A stretch of DNA of 11,350 bases from Candidatus Hydrogenedentota bacterium (GTDB lineage Bacteria; Hydrogenedentota; Hydrogenedentia; Hydrogenedentales; SLHB01): NCBI GenBank assembly GCA_034408725.1, contig JAWXCN010000150.1, forward strand, positions 1-11,350, read 5' to 3'. Numbering within the stretch: position 1 is the stretch's first letter; every line of letters starts with the position of its first letter. The translations under genes were made by a program, and so were the position numbers. Positions 1-11,350 of this stretch are shown in pieces. The notes under the pieces were generated by a model. That model had not been told where the DNA came from. It saw only the letters and a program-made list of their open reading frames with translations, and ran no database searches.

Positions 1-1293
1 GACTGGCTGCCGAGCCTCGACCTCTACGTGTCGGAAATATTCTACAACCTGCACCAGTCCGATCTGACCATGCGCTGGCACCGGGCCATAGGCAAACCTT
101 CGTGCGAATTGCTGACGTCGACCTCTCCGGACCACGTTCATCTGTCTGTACCGCCCACGGCTTGGCAAGTCAGCGCTGCAAGTGCCAAGGCCAACGGATG
201 CAATGTGCTTGGCCCATGCGGCGTTGGCGCATACCCCGACACCACCAGTTCTAAACGCCTCTTAGAGACTGTGCGGAAAGGTCTTGATTTCTACATGGAG
301 GACTCGGACCTTCACGACGGGGCCACGCCGATGGCCAAGGTCGCGCTAGTATTCTCCTGGGCCACCCGCAAATATTTTCGCGAGGGCCGCATGGACTGGT
401 CGCAGGAACTCGACGGCTGGTCGCGCGTACTCATTGAGGAGCACATCCCATTTGAACTGGTCGTGGCAGAGAACGTTTATTCCGCCGGGGACCTCGCCCG
501 CTATGAGCTTGTCATTCTGCCAAACATAGCTCACATGAGTGATGACTTTTGTGACGTATTGGATGAATACACCAGTGCGGGCGGGCATGTGTTGGCGACA
601 GGCGAAACATCGTTGGGCGATGAGCGTGGATTCGGACGCGACGACTTTGCGCTGGGCGACCTCTTCGGCATAGTGCGCAAGGGCACAATAGAGGGGCCTT
701 TTGCGATGGAGGGCGCCTCCGAGCCCGAGCCCGCCAATGGTGTGTTTCAGCAAGTGTCGGCGTCCGGTGAGGTGCTTGCACGGCACGTAGCAACCGATCC
801 CGCCGGTTCCGTCGCCGGGGGCTTAGATCCATTTCCCCTGAAGCCCACGCAGTGGCCGCTGGCCGTGACTCAGGCGGCAGGCGCGGGACAAGTCCTGTAC
901 GTGGCGTTTGGACTCGGTCGCTACTACGCCAGCCACAACTTAATCCATGCCCGAAACCGCATGACCCAATTCATTGACAGGCTCCTGCCCAAACGCCAGC
1001 TCGTGGTAAAGGCGCCGCGTTGCCTCGAAGTGACCGTGTGGCGCCAGGAGATGCCCGAGCGGACCATTGTTCACCTGGCAAACCGGACCCCGCTGGCCCA
1101 CGACTTGCCGCGCATCCATGAGATCACGCCGTTGCGGGACATTGAACTCGAGTTCGAGGTCCCCTACTCGTCTTCACGTGTGACGGGCCGTGGCGCCGAG
1201 GTGACTTGGCGCGTTGACCACGGAAAAATGCGCGTTCACATAGACAGTTTGGATATCTACGCCGCTCTAGTGATCGAACCGGCGCAACAGTAG
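1..1293 (+). CDS. Glycoside hydrolase-like protein, 5'-truncated: C-terminal part with a beta-galactosidase (GH42) trimerisation/class I GATase-like domain, GHL6-type architecture
   Basis: Frame +1 is open from base 1 (DWLPSLDLYVSEIFY...), so the gene starts upstream of the window. The motifs VALVFS, HIPFELV, LARYELVILPN, GGHVLATGETSL and DFALGDLFG are typical of the GH42 middle domain. The C-terminus IVHLAN...ITPL is beta-rich. Stop TAG at 1291-1293. Confidence 0.75.
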   Translation, partial: DWLPSLDLYVSEIFYNLHQSDLTMRWHRAIGKPSCELLTSTSPDHVHLSVPPTAWQVSAASAKANGCNVLGPCGVGAYPDTTSSKRLLETVRKGLDFYMEDSDLHDGATPMAKVALVFSWATRKYFREGRMDWSQELDGWSRVLIEEHIPFELVVAENVYSAGDLARYELVILPNIAHMSDDFCDVLDEYTSAGGHVLATGETSLGDERGFGRDDFALGDLFGIVRKGTIEGPFAMEGASEPEPANGVFQQVSASGEVLARHVATDPAGSVAGGLDPFPLKPTQWPLAVTQAAGAGQVLYVAFGLGRYYASHNLIHARNRMTQFIDRLLPKRQLVVKAPRCLEVTVWRQEMPERTIVHLANRTPLAHDLPRIHEITPLRDIELEFEVPYSSSRVTGRGAEVTWRVDHGKMRVHIDSLDIYAALVIEPAQQ

Positions 1294-7347: not shown

Positions 7348-8265
7348 GTGAATTCAATAGGGATTGGCTATGCAGCCATCATGCTTTTGTTGTGCTCCGC
7401 CGGACAGGCCAGGGAAGCCGAAGACTATCCGCGGGCGATGCCTATTGAAGGATGTGTAAACGTATTCGCAGCGAACGCGACATTGTTGAGCGGCGGGCAA
7501 CCCGAAGGTACAGCCGCGTTTAAGGCGCTTGCAGCAGCCGGCGTAAAGACGATCATTAGCGTTGATGGTGCGAAACCCGATGTCGAGGCAGCGGCGCAGT
7601 TTGGCATGCGGTATGTGCATCTTCCCATTGGGTACGACGGGGTTGGACGTTCGCGAACAATCGAGCTGTCACGCGCGGTGCGCGATTTGCCGGGGAAAAC
7701 ATACATTCACTGTCATCACGGAAAGCACCGGAGCCCCGCCGCCACGGCAAGTGTCATGGTCTGTTCGCACGGCTGGTCTGGCGAAGAGGGAATCGAATTT
7801 CTAGAACGCGCGGGCACGGCAGAAAGTTATAGTGGCCTTTACAGCGACGTCCGGCGGATGATTGCGGCGTCGAAGGCGGAGTTGGACGCGGCGGACAATA
7901 AATTCCCGGCGGTCGCCATCGTGCCGGGCGGTGTTGAGTTGATGGTCCAGATTGAACACCGGTTTGATGCGTTGGAGAACGCTAAGGCAGCCGGGTGGAA
8001 GGTTTCGCCTGCCCATCCCGACATTGTGCCTGCCCATGAGGCGCTGCAGCTTATGGAGCTGTTTCGTGAGAGCGTCCGAATAGATAGCACGGGCAGGAAA
8101 CCTGGTTATCACAAGTTTATGAAACAGTCCGAGACTGCGGCCGAAAATCTCGAAAAAGCAATAAGGTCGGGTGATATGCTTGCTTCGGACAAGGCCTTTG
8201 GCCTGATCAAAAATACATGTACGGCCTGCCATACCCAGTATCGAAATAAGTTTGGGCGCCGGTAG
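7348..8265 (+). CDS. Exported fusion: CX5R protein-tyrosine-phosphatase/DUF442-like domain plus C-terminal cytochrome c'-like helical domain, 305 aa
   Basis: GTG start preceded by GGAAGGA and a hydrophobic N-terminus. SGGQP, GVKTIISVD, G.RYVHLPI and P-loop YIHCHHGKHRS. C-terminal heme motif CTACHTQYR follows helical segments. Confidence 0.8.
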   Translation: MNSIGIGYAAIMLLLCSAGQAREAEDYPRAMPIEGCVNVFAANATLLSGGQPEGTAAFKALAAAGVKTIISVDGAKPDVEAAAQFGMRYVHLPIGYDGVGRSRTIELSRAVRDLPGKTYIHCHHGKHRSPAATASVMVCSHGWSGEEGIEFLERAGTAESYSGLYSDVRRMIAASKAELDAADNKFPAVAIVPGGVELMVQIEHRFDALENAKAAGWKVSPAHPDIVPAHEALQLMELFRESVRIDSTGRKPGYHKFMKQSETAAENLEKAIRSGDMLASDKAFGLIKNTCTACHTQYRNKFGRR

Positions 8266-8321
8266 GCGATTCCGATACTACGCAAAGTGTAACAATTGGT
8301 CTGAACCAAGGTATCGTCTGA

Positions 8322-8336
8322 TGCCCGGTCCGGGCA
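8322..8336. repeat. Perfect 7-1-7 palindrome downstream of the phosphatase-cytochrome gene (possible weak terminator or operator)
   Basis: tgcccgg-t-ccgggca, followed by gccttt. Confidence 0.35.
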
Positions 8337-8575
8337 GCCTTTCCCCCAGGGGCATGATTGGGGTAGCCGGAAAACACAAGATATTGTATTGAGTTTTCAG
8401 GATGGTTGGTGTATACTCCGTGCGACGCCCAAAGTGTGGGTGCGTCAAGCGGATGAGGAGAAAGGCCAACTCAACCTGTTTTTATCTTGAGACCGGCCGT
8501 ACTTTTACCATTGTAGGAGGCGGTTGCGTCGGCAAGTAGCACGAACAAGTTGCCGCAATGGCCCTATCGAAAACC

Positions 8576-8585
8576 AAGGAGGTGA
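8576..8585 (+). promoter_or_regulatory. Very strong Shine-Dalgarno sequence
   Basis: AAGGAGGTGA, 7 nt before ATG 8593. Confidence 0.85.
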
Positions 8586-8592
8586 ACGCGAC

Positions 8593-8733
8593 ATGAAGCA
8601 CATCAAGGCCCTGAGCAAAATGGATCCGAAGGCTGCCTTCAGCTTACCGTCGAAGCCGGTGAAGACCGCATGCGACACGTTTCTGAAGACGCCGGAAGAG
8701 AAAGACGAGAAGAAGGGCAGCGAAGAGAGCTAG
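8593..8733 (+). CDS. Small 46-aa peptide MKHIKALSKMDPKAAFSLPSKPVKTACDTFLKTPEEKDEKKGSEES, candidate RiPP-like precursor
   Basis: Full-length SD, GC3-rich codons (aag cac atc aag gcc ctg), TAG stop, and a strong hairpin just downstream. Confidence 0.8.
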   Translation: MKHIKALSKMDPKAAFSLPSKPVKTACDTFLKTPEEKDEKKGSEES

Positions 8734-8764
8734 ACCGTCTCTTCGATTTCGTTGCGAAGTTTTT

Positions 8765-8797
8765 CGAGCGCCCTCGGCGAAAGCCAGAGGGCGCTTG
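8765..8797 (+). terminator. GC-rich stem-loop after the peptide gene (leaky intrinsic terminator or mRNA-stabilising hairpin)
   Basis: agcgccctc-ggc-GAAA-gcc-a-gagggcgct: a 12-bp stem with one bulge and a GNRA loop. The downstream U-tract is weak (gtctttat). Confidence 0.7.
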
Positions 8798-8819
8798 GTC
8801 TTTATGCGGGGCGATTTCC

Positions 8820-10292
8820 ATGAATATCTGCATAGCCGGGCAAGCCGCGCCCGTCGCATGGATGCCGCATCTTGTGTCCGCGTTTCAAAAGCGCGGCAAC
8901 GTGATCACCATCGGCCCAGTCCCCTCGATTGTTCCGATAGGAAGCATGCCGGAATCCTGGCCCGCGCCGGGACACATTGATTGTCCGCTGGATCAAATTC
9001 GCAGCCTTCTCGATGTGCTTCCGCCCGGATGGGTACCCGATATTCTGGTAACTGTTTCCGGCGGTGGCGTCCCGTTACTCACTTGCACGCACGATCTCTC
9101 CTGCCCCACCGTTTTTTACAGCGTCGATACGTGGCAGTGCTACATGGATTACCGGGAGGCGCTGCACTACGACATCGTGTTCGCGGGCCAGCGCGCTTTT
9201 GTTCCGCTGCTTCGCGCCGCGGGTTGCCAGCACGTCAGTTGGCTGCCGCTGGCGTGCGAACCGGCAGTCCACAACCCTTTGCGGATGGTGAAAACCAGTG
9301 ACATTGGCTTCGTTGGCGGGACCCGGGAGCCAGTCCACTGGCGGCGCCGCGCTTTACTTGATGCGCTGCGCGCGCGGCATTCCGTGATCGTACATGACGG
9401 ACTTTATGGAGACTCAATGCGGCGCGCGCTCGCCGAATGCAAACTCGTGTTCAACCATTCGGCGGTCGATGACGTAAACATGCGGATTTTTGAAGTGCTC
9501 GCGATGGGCGGTGCGCTGCTCACGAACCGTACCTCGCAAACAAGTGGATTATTCGACCTTTTCACAGAAGGCGAGCACTTGATCGTGTACGACGATGAAA
9601 AGGATTTGCTGGCCAAGGCCTCCCACTTTGTAACGCAAGATGCGGAATGCATGCGCATTGCAATGGCGGGAAAGTCGCTGGTTCATCGCGAGCACACCTA
9701 TGATCACCGGGTGGACACGATATTGAATACGGTTGCGGGACTGTTTCCAGGTTTTCCCGCCGCTGGCGCCCGCGAATCGGACCGTTTTGACTTTCTGCCA
9801 AAGGTACCTGGAAGGTTATTGGATATCGGGATGGCGGTTCCTGCATCGAAACATGGGTTGCTGCGCCGGGGGGTGCGTACGTTTTCCGGATACGCGCGGA
9901 ACGAAGAAGTGCTCACGAAACGCCGTGGCTCGTATCACGACGCCGGAACCGAAATGACGGACAGGTGGCGCGAATCTTTCGATACCGCGGTCATCGGCAT
10001 GCCGCCGTTCGACGGCGAGTTTGACCTCGCATATGGCTGCCTCGCGCCGGGGGGCGCGCTTGTCGCCCGGTATCCGAAGTCGCCAGAGATCGACTCCGAA
10101 CATTCCGAAGAATTCATACAACATGGTTTTCATGTCGTGCGCCGATTTGTTGATTCGGAGCACCGGCGCGTCATTTGGGCGCGGAAACGTACACGGCACC
10201 TGCGCGACATCGCGCGCGAGGTATGTCAAACACTTTGGGTTCCGGGAGTGGATGGCGAACATGTCGCCTCGTTGCTCGATCCGGAATGGTAG
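8820..10292 (+). CDS. GT-B glycosyltransferase (CgeB/DUF3880/Glyco_trans_1_2-like) with a C-terminal degenerate class I SAM-methyltransferase-like domain, 490 aa
   Basis: PTVFYSVDT, YDIVF, WLPLACEPAVH, DIGFVG, KLVFNHS..DDVNMRIFEVLAMGGALLT, LFTEGEHLIVY and EHTYDHRV are hallmark CgeB-family motifs. The C-terminus has RLLDIG, SFDTAVI and LAPGGALV. The start is placed at ATG 8820, after the hairpin. Confidence 0.85.
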   Translation: MNICIAGQAAPVAWMPHLVSAFQKRGNVITIGPVPSIVPIGSMPESWPAPGHIDCPLDQIRSLLDVLPPGWVPDILVTVSGGGVPLLTCTHDLSCPTVFYSVDTWQCYMDYREALHYDIVFAGQRAFVPLLRAAGCQHVSWLPLACEPAVHNPLRMVKTSDIGFVGGTREPVHWRRRALLDALRARHSVIVHDGLYGDSMRRALAECKLVFNHSAVDDVNMRIFEVLAMGGALLTNRTSQTSGLFDLFTEGEHLIVYDDEKDLLAKASHFVTQDAECMRIAMAGKSLVHREHTYDHRVDTILNTVAGLFPGFPAAGARESDRFDFLPKVPGRLLDIGMAVPASKHGLLRRGVRTFSGYARNEEVLTKRRGSYHDAGTEMTDRWRESFDTAVIGMPPFDGEFDLAYGCLAPGGALVARYPKSPEIDSEHSEEFIQHGFHVVRRFVDSEHRRVIWARKRTRHLRDIAREVCQTLWVPGVDGEHVASLLDPEW

Positions 10293-10347
10293 TCCCTGGT
10301 GTAGGTGTCCGGACCAGACTACAATAGTGCCAATAGAGGCGTGATGC

Positions 10348-11076
10348 ATGATCAAAACTATCGGACTTTCCAAGCGTTTCGGTGGAAAACTCGCCGTAAA
10401 CGCACTCGACCTGTCAATTGACCAAGGCGAATTCTTTTGTTTTCTCGGTCCGAATGGGGCTGGCAAAACTACAACCATTAAGATGTTGACGGGGCTGCTG
10501 AAACCCAGCGGTGGACGCGCCGAGCTCGGCGGGATAGACATTCAGAAACATCCTGTGGCCACCAAATCCATCCTCGGATACATACCCGATACGCCCTTCT
10601 TGTACGACAAGTTAACGGGGCGGGAATTCATGCGGTTTGTCGCGGGACTCTACCAATTGCCCAAGGAAGTCTTGAACGGAAAAAGCGAAGAGTTGCTGGA
10701 ATTGTTTGAAGTGCGTCACGTCGGCGATCAACTGATCGAGAATTATAGCCACGGCATGCGCCAGAAGCTGTCTTTCGCCGCCTGCTTCCTGCACGACCCC
10801 AAGATCGTGATCGTTGATGAACCCTGGGTTGGGTTGGACCCGAAGAACATTCGTTTCGTGAAAGAGTACTTGAAGCAGAAGACTCGCGAAGGCCTGACCG
10901 TCTTCATGTCCACGCACACACTGAGCCTGATCGAGGACGTCGCCGATCGTATCGGCATTATTCATCAAGGCGTGTTGCTGCACACTGGCTCGATCAAGGA
11001 CATTCTCACGCTCGCAAGAACGCCGGGCTCCCTCGAAGACGTGTTTCTCGAACTGACGCGGGGCGAGAACGAATGA
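10348..11076 (+). CDS. ABC transporter ATP-binding protein (ABC-2/DrrA-like exporter), 242 aa
   Basis: Walker A GPNGAGKTT, signature YSHGMRQK, Walker B IVIVDEP, H-loop STH. Confidence 0.95.
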   Translation: MIKTIGLSKRFGGKLAVNALDLSIDQGEFFCFLGPNGAGKTTTIKMLTGLLKPSGGRAELGGIDIQKHPVATKSILGYIPDTPFLYDKLTGREFMRFVAGLYQLPKEVLNGKSEELLELFEVRHVGDQLIENYSHGMRQKLSFAACFLHDPKIVIVDEPWVGLDPKNIRFVKEYLKQKTREGLTVFMSTHTLSLIEDVADRIGIIHQGVLLHTGSIKDILTLARTPGSLEDVFLELTRGENE

Positions 11077-11350
11077 CGCGTGCGAAGGCGATCCTCTGGG
11101 CGAAAATACGCATCGGGCGCAACCAGGTCGCGTCGGTCCGGCACGAGTCCAAGCTCAAGGTCGCCGTCGTTTCGGTGTCGGCGGTGCTGTTGTGGATAGC
11201 GGCGTTCGCCGCGTTCTATGGGGCGTTCCAGTGGTTGAAGCAATTTGGCGCGGACAACTCCGATACGACGATGGGTCTCGGTGAAATCATCATGTCGCGC
11301 ATGCTGTCCGTATTTGCGCTCGCGTTATTTTTCATGCTGCTGTTCTCGAA
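11073..11350 (+). CDS. ABC transporter permease subunit, 3'-truncated
   Basis: ATGA overlap with the ATPase stop. Translates MTRAKAILWAKIRIGRNQVASVRHESKLKVAVVSVSAVLLWIAAFAAFYGAFQWLKQF...RMLSVFALALFFMLLFS with two hydrophobic segments, and is open to the window end. It is absent from the ORF track because it has no stop. Confidence 0.85.
   Translation, partial: MTRAKAILWAKIRIGRNQVASVRHESKLKVAVVSVSAVLLWIAAFAAFYGAFQWLKQFGADNSDTTMGLGEIIMSRMLSVFALALFFMLLFS

Follow-up and report, generated by a model that had tools for sequence, protein, structure and literature searches.

Is a small peptide that is encoded just upstream of a glycosyltransferase gene a substrate of that enzyme? The question is raised by an 11,350-bp contig from a Candidatus Hydrogenedentota bacterium (referred to below as the window; it is the whole of contig C150 in genome G000, an assembly of 5.17 Mb that is 92% complete), in which a 46-residue open reading frame (ORF) and a hairpin precede co-directional genes for a glycosyltransferase (GT), an ATP-binding cassette (ABC) ATPase and an ABC permease. 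A preliminary description had read this layout (precursor, read-through hairpin, tailoring enzyme and exporter) as a single locus for a peptide synthesised on the ribosome and modified after translation (a RiPP), and had proposed a new class of glycopeptide. Comparison with 135 Hydrogenedentota genomes (labelled G, with genera labelled g and families f) points elsewhere: the peptide gene is real, its proximity to the GT gene is confined to one genus, and the first residues of its product carry the motif that also begins the peptides of a remote operon for a relative of CteB, the maturase of SCIFF peptides. From these sequence comparisons we judge it an even bet that the peptide is a separately transcribed, dispersed substrate of that remote operon, and not of the adjacent GT.

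The ORF at 8593–8733, whose product is MKHIKALSKMDPKAAFSLPSKPVKTACDTFLKTPEEKDEKKGSEES (46 residues, with a single Cys, C27, and seven Ser/Thr past residue 15 on direct reading of the translation), is a real, conserved small-protein gene, and the residue counts of the preliminary description were right. The peptide was detected by tBLASTn in 7/61 related genomes (E<0.01) and by a profile of 16 sequences in 14/135 genomes, at one copy per genome; the 14 belong to five genera of a single family (three genomes in g1, including G000, six in g6, three in g9, and one each in g17 and g24). Two more g1 genomes have the GT gene beginning at a contig edge, so that the position of the peptide gene is unreadable. 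Orthologues range from 36 to 48 residues with all insertions and deletions in frame, and codon differences at positions 1, 2 and 3 across the 14-genome family number 286, 124 and 589; together with conservation in 14 genomes, this in-frame length variation and codon-position bias mark the ORF as more than a chance one. An AGGAGG-type Shine-Dalgarno (SD) sequence lies 5′ of all 14 orthologues. The in-frame TTG at 8524 was set aside as the true start, since the upstream open frames vary (43–80 residues) and the SDs of the orthologues all fit the start at Met-Lys-His (MKH).

Beyond the genome set, a word search of public data gave 11 clusters of the peptide family, and the profile found 17 representatives at E≤1e-3 among 1.84 billion proteins; one of these, a 1594-residue protein matched over seven short stretches, was taken as a false positive. 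Scanning metagenomes with the peptide alignment yielded four loci: the window itself, contig L081 and two matches of 18–20 residues. The ESM Atlas search with the peptide returned nothing usable, and the profile gave, among PDB chains, a chance match to DsbA alone (E = 0.44). Within the 16-sequence alignment M1, K2, H3, K5, K9, P12, K32, P34, K37, K40 and K41 are invariant, the core (CDT[FI]LKTPEEKD.KK) is hydrophilic and strongly conserved, and neither a signal nor a hydrophobic segment is present in the peptide.

It is the head of the peptide, MKHIKALS (residues 1–8), that connects it with other genes. Tandem short ORFs of G009 and G012, reached through weak matches in the initial search, share the first residues of the window peptide and carry unrelated, Lys-Pro-rich tails. 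A six-frame search of G000 for M-[KR]-H-[ILVM]-[KRGT]-x-[ILVMA]-[ST] (the MKH motif, which the window peptide matches) gave eight occurrences, 8/8 of them on SD-preceded ORFs of 32–64 residues, against 2/54 occurrences on such short ORFs in a control with any residue other than His at the third position; the motif was never found on a long protein of this genome. At least 11 short ORFs, spread over nine contigs of G000, start with M-K-H-[ILV]-[KR]-x-[ILVM]-[ST]. Across the phylum, a DNA pattern of the motif matched 334 times, in 117/135 genomes, compared with 16 matches for the reversed-pattern control (summed by hand). The window peptide, with the motif at its N-terminus and an SD before it, belongs to this MKH-headed set, the cores of which are diverse: Trp-rich, hydrophobic, two-Cys, Lys-Pro-rich and, in the window, hydrophilic.

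Several members of the set have settings of their own. The tandem ORFs at L079 1501–2003 (G009:C1) and L014 (G012:C292) are 31–32 residues long, with basic, Lys-Pro-Val-rich tails and a terminator hairpin at the end, and one single Lys-Pro-Val-tailed ORF with this head is present at G000:C99:6342. Three of the eight motif-bearing ORFs of G000, of 50, 55 and 64 residues with aromatic or hydrophobic cores, lie in tandem on the minus strand at G000:C222:8407–9224 (L091), directly behind genes for an extracytoplasmic-function (ECF) sigma factor and a 524-residue putative anti-sigma protein, and are followed by the gene for a 1384-residue LVIVD/BACON/lipase-domain protein. Another of the eight, a 56-residue, two-Cys MKH-headed ORF on the minus strand at G000:C17:13053 (L088 6887–7054), comes immediately after the gene for a GAF/sigma-54 activator.

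Searching for relatives of the SCIFF maturase identified a 695-residue ORF on another contig of G000 (C124), the best families of which were TIGR03974, NF040492, PapB and the nif11-type maturases, all far under their cut-offs. Orthologues of this CteB-like protein were found in 113/135 genomes. Gene content, read from the loci of 12 genomes other than G000, follows the order: one to four MKH-headed peptides, GNAT, CPBP/Rce1-type membrane protease, ABC ATPase, ABC-2 permease, CteB-like protein; in 12/12 of these genomes the MKH motif heads every peptide beside the operon. In G000 the end of C7 carries the first part of the operon (peptide, two GNATs) and the start of C124 the rest (CPBP, ABC, ABC-2, CteB-like), and gene order in relatives suggests that the two contigs join. 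The best-kept operon peptide, Trp-rich and of ~39 residues, is present in 109/135 genomes; compared with the PDB it gave chance FliM matches only. By hand tally, 99 genomes have both this peptide and the CteB-like protein: 65 have them on one contig and strand, 3.9–4.9 kb apart with the peptide upstream, and 34 on different contigs, these being mostly fragmented assemblies (G040 and G059 are not). For the other ten genomes with the peptide the enzyme search drew no match at E≤1e-30; family f13, in which the enzyme is divergent, accounts for eight of the ten, and the f13 genome G055 has a CteB-like enzyme in place. A further hand tally counted nine genomes with neither the motif pattern nor the enzyme.

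The best PDB match of the CteB-like profile was CteB itself (5WGG/5WHY, E = 5.7e-54, full length). The protein keeps the N-terminal RiPP recognition element (RRE), which is the part best aligned with CteB, and four SPASM cysteines were invariant in ten CteB-like sequences, with a C-terminal GNAT domain following. The CX3CX2C site of radical S-adenosylmethionine (SAM) enzymes is lost: CNLRCKYC of CteB aligns to AAVKKKGW in the G000 protein. With the cluster site gone the chemistry cannot be radical-SAM, and lacking this motif the protein was ruled out as a radical-SAM partner for Cys27. The idea of such a partner was dropped altogether, the other SPASM match checked in G000 (C235) being an anaerobic sulfatase maturase. 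In six genomes (G056:C57, G038:C526, G052:C9, G037:C208, G073:C244 and G043:C24) the first ~95 residues of the CteB-like protein, the RRE, matched separately, just upstream of the rest, which suggests that in these lineages either the RRE has a gene of its own or the reading frame changes. A limited literature search found no paper on such a system.

How closely the window peptide resembles the operon peptides was scored with a position-specific scoring matrix of the first 16 residues, made from 23 operon-adjacent peptides of the 12 genomes other than G000, the candidates being the 62,303 ATG-started ORFs of 25–100 residues in G000. Over residues 1–16 the window peptide ranked 5/62,303, the top ten all being MKH ORFs, and over residues 1–8 alone it ranked 3/62,303. 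The RiPP-like reading of the preliminary description survives here in one part: the basic N-terminus is leader-like, as it matches the heads of the operon peptides, making a RiPP-like precursor plausible, for the remote machinery; the adjacent GT and ABC proteins as its partners do not stand.

The review PMC8326336 describes the CteA leader as lying on the CteB RRE as a beta-strand. Given this docking, and the RRE being the best-aligned part of the protein, we propose the MKH head as an RRE-docking element. By analogy with CteA and CteB, the head would dock on the RRE of the CteB-like protein, the GNAT domains would modify the docked peptide (acylation being most likely), the CPBP protease would trim the MKH head and the ABC-2 pump would export the product. 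The broadest form of this proposal is one that we advance tentatively, thinking it rather unlikely as a whole: one machine, composed of a CteB-derived RRE/SPASM scaffold, GNATs, CPBP and ABC-2, might serve at least ten dispersed MKH peptides per genome throughout the phylum, the window product being acylated, trimmed and exported with them, and would have no described counterpart.

Whether the genes around the peptide are its partners can be judged from the layout of the window, which comprises the following features.

8389–8417, + strand: promoter-like site, TTGAGT-17 nt-TATACT, putative in function (consensus scan, 1 found against 0.5 expected)
8424–8592, + strand: 5′ leader of the peptide mRNA, ~170 nt, partly conserved in alignments
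8577–8584, + strand: Shine-Dalgarno sequence AGGAGGTG, 8 nt 5′ of the ATG
8593–8733, + strand: gene for the 46-residue peptide, type A of the MKH-headed set (ATG at 8593, stop at 8731–8733)
8593–8637, + strand: leader-like first 15 residues, MKHIKALSKMDPKAA, of which residues 1–8 are the MKH motif
~8764–8798, + strand: GC-rich hairpin with a weak U-tract, a probable intrinsic terminator (folding, orthologue comparison)
8820–10292, + strand: CgeB-like GT-B glycosyltransferase with a class I methyltransferase-fold domain (Pfam, structure models)
10348–11076, + strand: ABC transporter ATPase, DrrA-like (PF00005; TIGR01188)
11073–11350, + strand: N-terminal 92 residues of a PF16949-type ABC permease, ended by the contig edge (profile, full-length orthologue)

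All of the features that the preliminary description listed (peptide ORF, SD, hairpin, GT-B, ABC ATPase and permease) lie where it had placed them, and the peptide ORF falls inside a 555-nt gap between the gene for a periplasmic phosphatase/cytochrome c′-like protein (7348–8265) and the GT gene. The window being a whole contig, there is nothing past 11350 in the assembly.

The GT gene lies within 1.5 kb downstream of the peptide gene in only 3/14 loci (G000, G001 and G002), all of them from g1, and in 11/14 genomes the peptide is found in unrelated contexts. In g6 its neighbours are a divergent gene of the endonuclease/exonuclease/phosphatase family on one side and a convergent gene on the other, with the GT-ABC-permease block 8–13 kb off on the opposite strand; g9 genomes have a DUF1559/prepilin-type or TetR gene after it; in g17 it is flanked by YkuD and LRAT genes, and in g24 by a methyltransferase-TPR gene and a convergent Rce1-like gene. 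Downstream neighbours outside g1 include Gfo/Idh/MocA-like, DUF1559/prepilin, TetR, LRAT and convergent Rce1-like genes. The g24 neighbour (G027:C790; peptide at L007 1721–2641, with the convergent gene) is an Rce1-like/CPBP protease, the protease class of the operon; as a single case this proximity may be chance.

Seen from the GT side, none of six GT orthologues (G036, G009, G008, G059, G047 and G040) had a peptide-like ORF in the 478–600 nt upstream. The 1606-nt metagenome contig L081 has a peptide relative (66% identity) 295 nt before an orthologue of the ABC ATPase gene, with no GT between; its feature span is 922–1605, and upstream on the other strand lies the N-terminus of an ABC-exporter-like membrane protein. 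The permease gene is 5–14 kb from the peptide gene on the same contig in G009, G036, G120, G122 and G012, and on a separate contig in G020; G008 has a permease at 53% identity, and the peptide was not found there. A single functional unit of precursor, read-through hairpin, GT and ABC genes is therefore not supported: orthologues of the GT and ABC genes occur without the peptide just as peptide homologues occur in other contexts. The supposed glycosylation acceptors fare no better: G020, the three g9 genomes and the relatives P0018, P0019, P0023 and P0024 have lost Cys27, some relatives carry three to five Cys, and of the Ser/Thr residues T29 and T/S33 alone are well kept. On these comparisons the adjacency of peptide and GT is a rearrangement peculiar to one genus, the GT and ABC proteins are not partners of the peptide, there is no sign of peptide glycosylation, and the proposed glycopeptide class does not hold.

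Signals around the peptide gene are those of a transcript of its own. The hairpin behind it, with the weak U-tract that had been described, is probably an intrinsic terminator: the folding energy of a 101-nt stretch is −43.4 kcal/mol (z = −3.46; 1/200 shuffles folds as well), and each of the 14 orthologous genes has a hairpin (−20 to −30 kcal/mol) 14–44 nt past the stop. The 12 nt after the hairpin contain 5–9 U in 10/11 genomes outside g1 (4 in G121) and 2–4 U in g1; a simple terminator scan made no call on the + strand at the window hairpin, the tail of which has 4 U in 12 nt. On the 5′ side, a block ACAAGATATTGTATTGAGTTTT...GTGTATACTC upstream of the promoter-like site is invariant in G000, G001 and G002 and recognisable in g6. 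RNA-library contigs from four soil metatranscriptome studies (112–275 nt, 90–96% likeness) cover 8404–8736, a hint of expression for the peptide, and nothing was found over 8740–9400; these contigs come from relatives, so that the uncovered part is uninformative on read-through or GT expression. Judged by these signals, the gene is monocistronic, and a promoter-like site, a long leader, a strong SD and a probable terminator hairpin belong to it. The leader itself (8424–8592) has blocks kept in g1 and partly in g6, and contains a second AGGAGG at ~8515–8520, ~75 nt before the actual SD, as well as the TTG at 8524 in frame with the peptide. A function as cis-regulatory RNA is possible; Rfam models gave five matches on 8200–8900, all far under the gathering score (best sX6, 22 bits against 40).

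A number of points weigh against the peptide being a substrate of the remote operon. Its likeness to the operon peptides rests on eight residues: over residues 9–16 alone it ranked 5151 of 62,303, or 1165 with a one-residue shift, and the rank over residues 1–8 is partly circular, because the training peptides had been chosen by a regular expression for the MKH motif. The peptide or its orthologues and the operon lie on different contigs in each of the genomes checked (G000, G001, G002, G009 and G036). Related genomes are not independent, so the co-occurrence of motif and enzyme is only supportive. No Pfam or NCBIfam model, that of the SCIFF precursor included, matched the peptide at E≤10 (seven family members in the case of NCBIfam); the CteB-like enzyme, having lost its radical-SAM site, offers no chemistry that can be named; and the weak U-tract in g1 may leave room for some read-through into the GT gene. 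A co-fold of the RRE (C124 residues 56–150, 10-row alignment) with the peptide (16-row alignment), run without controls, scored 0.15 and 0.11 where 0.32 was the mark, and speaks neither for nor against binding. Finally, the window core is hydrophilic and conserved, whereas the cores beside the operon are Trp-rich or hydrophobic, and such a core would fit an ordinary small protein too. A plain cytosolic protein, unmodified (a binding partner, for example, or a stress protein), is an explanation to which we assign a substantial minority of the probability: the MKH head would then be shared for some reason other than an RRE, such as stability, another partner or the context of the translation start. 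Purifying selection at both ends of the peptide and the very hydrophilic core would suit such a protein, as would the single copy per genome, the strong SD, the presence in RNA libraries and the weak likeness past residue 8, and no maturase adjoins the peptide in any of the 14 genomes. It leaves unexplained that, in the 12 genomes whose loci were read, all peptides found by the CteB-like operon have the motif, that in G000 it is confined to short ORFs and that nine genomes are without both motif and enzyme.

The explanations that draw on the neighbouring genes are far less probable. Glycosylation, perhaps with methylation, by the adjacent GT fusion after read-through of the hairpin, with the ABC pair as exporter, we regard as very improbable: G000, G001 and G002 do have the genes side by side in one direction, the U-tract of this trio is weak (2–4 U in 12 nt) and the GT-B fold with its methyltransferase-fold tail is genuine, but the adjacency is limited to that single genus, a peptide-like ORF is missing upstream of all six other GT orthologues examined, the peptide and ABC ATPase genes of L081 stand without a GT gene between them, conservation fails at Cys27 and at most Ser/Thr, the GT comes from a large paralogous family (it has eight matches within G000), and neither a double-Gly leader nor a C39 peptidase domain is present. 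L081, where the peptide gene directly precedes the ABC ATPase gene, speaks for the peptide as cargo or a modulator of the PF16949-type transporter, with a GT gene that was inserted later; the same block in g1, and the permease 5–14 kb away on the same contig in five genomes, are in keeping with this. Set against it are the place of the transporter in g6 and g9, several genes away on the other strand, its location on another contig in G020, the G008 permease for which no peptide was found, and a peptide that lacks any signal or hydrophobic segment, and we hold this explanation, too, to be improbable. Hardly credible is a regulatory upstream ORF, by which translation of the short ORF and the hairpin would attenuate transcription of the GT-ABC genes: a short ORF and a hairpin with few U do lie 87 nt before the GT start, but it is the amino acid sequence that is conserved, beyond the ORF alone, and in 11/14 genomes the gene precedes unrelated or convergent genes. 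What probability remains is left to explanations that we have not thought of.

Three known systems invite comparison with the peptide and the remote operon. The SCIFF (ranthipeptide) system of CteA and CteB (5WGG/5WHY; TIGR03973/TIGR03974) is the closest for the operon protein, a full-length homologue of CteB with RRE and SPASM cysteines that differs in being without CX3CX2C and in having an added GNAT domain; the operon also adds genes for a CPBP protease, GNAT and ABC-2 proteins. Compared with a SCIFF precursor, the window peptide has one Cys rather than six in ~45 residues, gives no TIGR03973 match at E≤10 (seven family members) and is not encoded beside the enzyme, there being no radical-SAM gene in the window. 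SCIFF precursors are said to begin with a heptapeptide nearly identical to the MKH head; this string is absent from PMC8172795.

Prochlorosins are made by one enzyme, ProcM, from many ProcA precursors with a long Nif11-type leader, the genes of which are mostly away from the processing genes. The MKH set is similar in its many short genes with a conserved head and unrelated cores, mostly away from processing genes, and differs in that the head is ~8–15 residues rather than a long Nif11-type leader, that the enzyme class is another, and that processing of the MKH peptides is a proposal. Glycocins (sublancin, with SunA and SunS) have a GT-A/GT2 enzyme, a double-Gly leader and an ABC transporter with a C39 peptidase. 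The window likewise has a small peptide beside a glycosyltransferase and an ABC transporter. Its GT, however, is of the GT-B type rather than SunS-like GT-A/GT2, the peptide has no GG motif, the transporter consists of a DrrA-like ATPase and a separate PF16949 permease with no peptidase domain, and in the peptide family neither the acceptor Cys nor the synteny of precursor and GT is conserved. The preliminary description had itself remarked that the locus lacks a double-Gly leader, a C39 peptidase and a GT-A/GT2 enzyme, which sequence, Pfam/NCBIfam models and fold bear out.

Since the glycopeptide class is not upheld, effort can be spared on a GT that is a chance neighbour. A short N-terminal tag instead links dispersed small genes of Hydrogenedentota to the peptides of an uncharacterised operon for a CteB relative. 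If the RRE does read this tag, the operon's substrates could be catalogued across whole genomes with nothing but sequence, work on a repurposed, catalytically dead radical-SAM scaffold could draw on several natural substrates, and there would be a concrete hypothesis for a conserved small gene from an uncultured phylum.

The GT and ABC genes form a block of their own, conserved in g1 and g6. The GT matches Pfam Glyco_trans_1_2 (PF13524) at 8.3e-25 (87.9 bits against a cut-off of 25), with DUF3880 slightly below its cut-off (25.0 bits against 25.2). Its model has a predicted local distance difference test score (pLDDT) of 83, and every top PDB match is an enzyme of the GT-B/GT4 type; the Pfam match and the GT-B fold (residues 1–308) agree in placing it among CgeB-like GTs. 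The tail, residues 322–490, matched no Pfam model, methyltransferase models included, at E≤1; it was modelled at a pLDDT of 88 with a methyltransferase-fold domain at ~331–456. The 35 matches that Foldseek listed for the tail (TMq 0.41–0.61) were all class I SAM methyltransferases, a spermidine synthase and the modifying region of a fatty-acid synthase excepted. The glycine-rich motif I is degenerate (LLDIGMAV). The structure models thus agree with the earlier reading of the gene as a GT-B/methyltransferase-like fusion. The eight matches within G000 indicate a large paralogous family. The ABC ATPase matches PF00005 at 5.3e-25 and TIGR01188 at 223 bits, under the 312 cut-off, and the permease fragment scores 24.1 bits with PF16949 against a cut-off of 25.7, its full-length orthologue in G002 giving 2.8e-130. 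As a conserved block, a GT-B enzyme with a methyltransferase-fold domain, a DrrA-type ATPase and a PF16949 permease would point, with low confidence, to synthesis and export of a possibly methylated envelope glycan or glycolipid.

Of the remaining genes in the window, that at 7348–8265 (+) encodes a protein with a signal peptide, a dual-specificity phosphatase-like region and a C-terminal cytochrome c′ motif (PF01322 at 2.9e-07, CxxCH near the end); its position is taken in g6 and g9 by the endonuclease/exonuclease/phosphatase-family gene. Further upstream lie genes for a DUF6786 protein at 1659–2711 (−) and for a protein with a beta-galactosidase trimerisation domain at 1–1293 (+), both ordinary carbohydrate-use genes.

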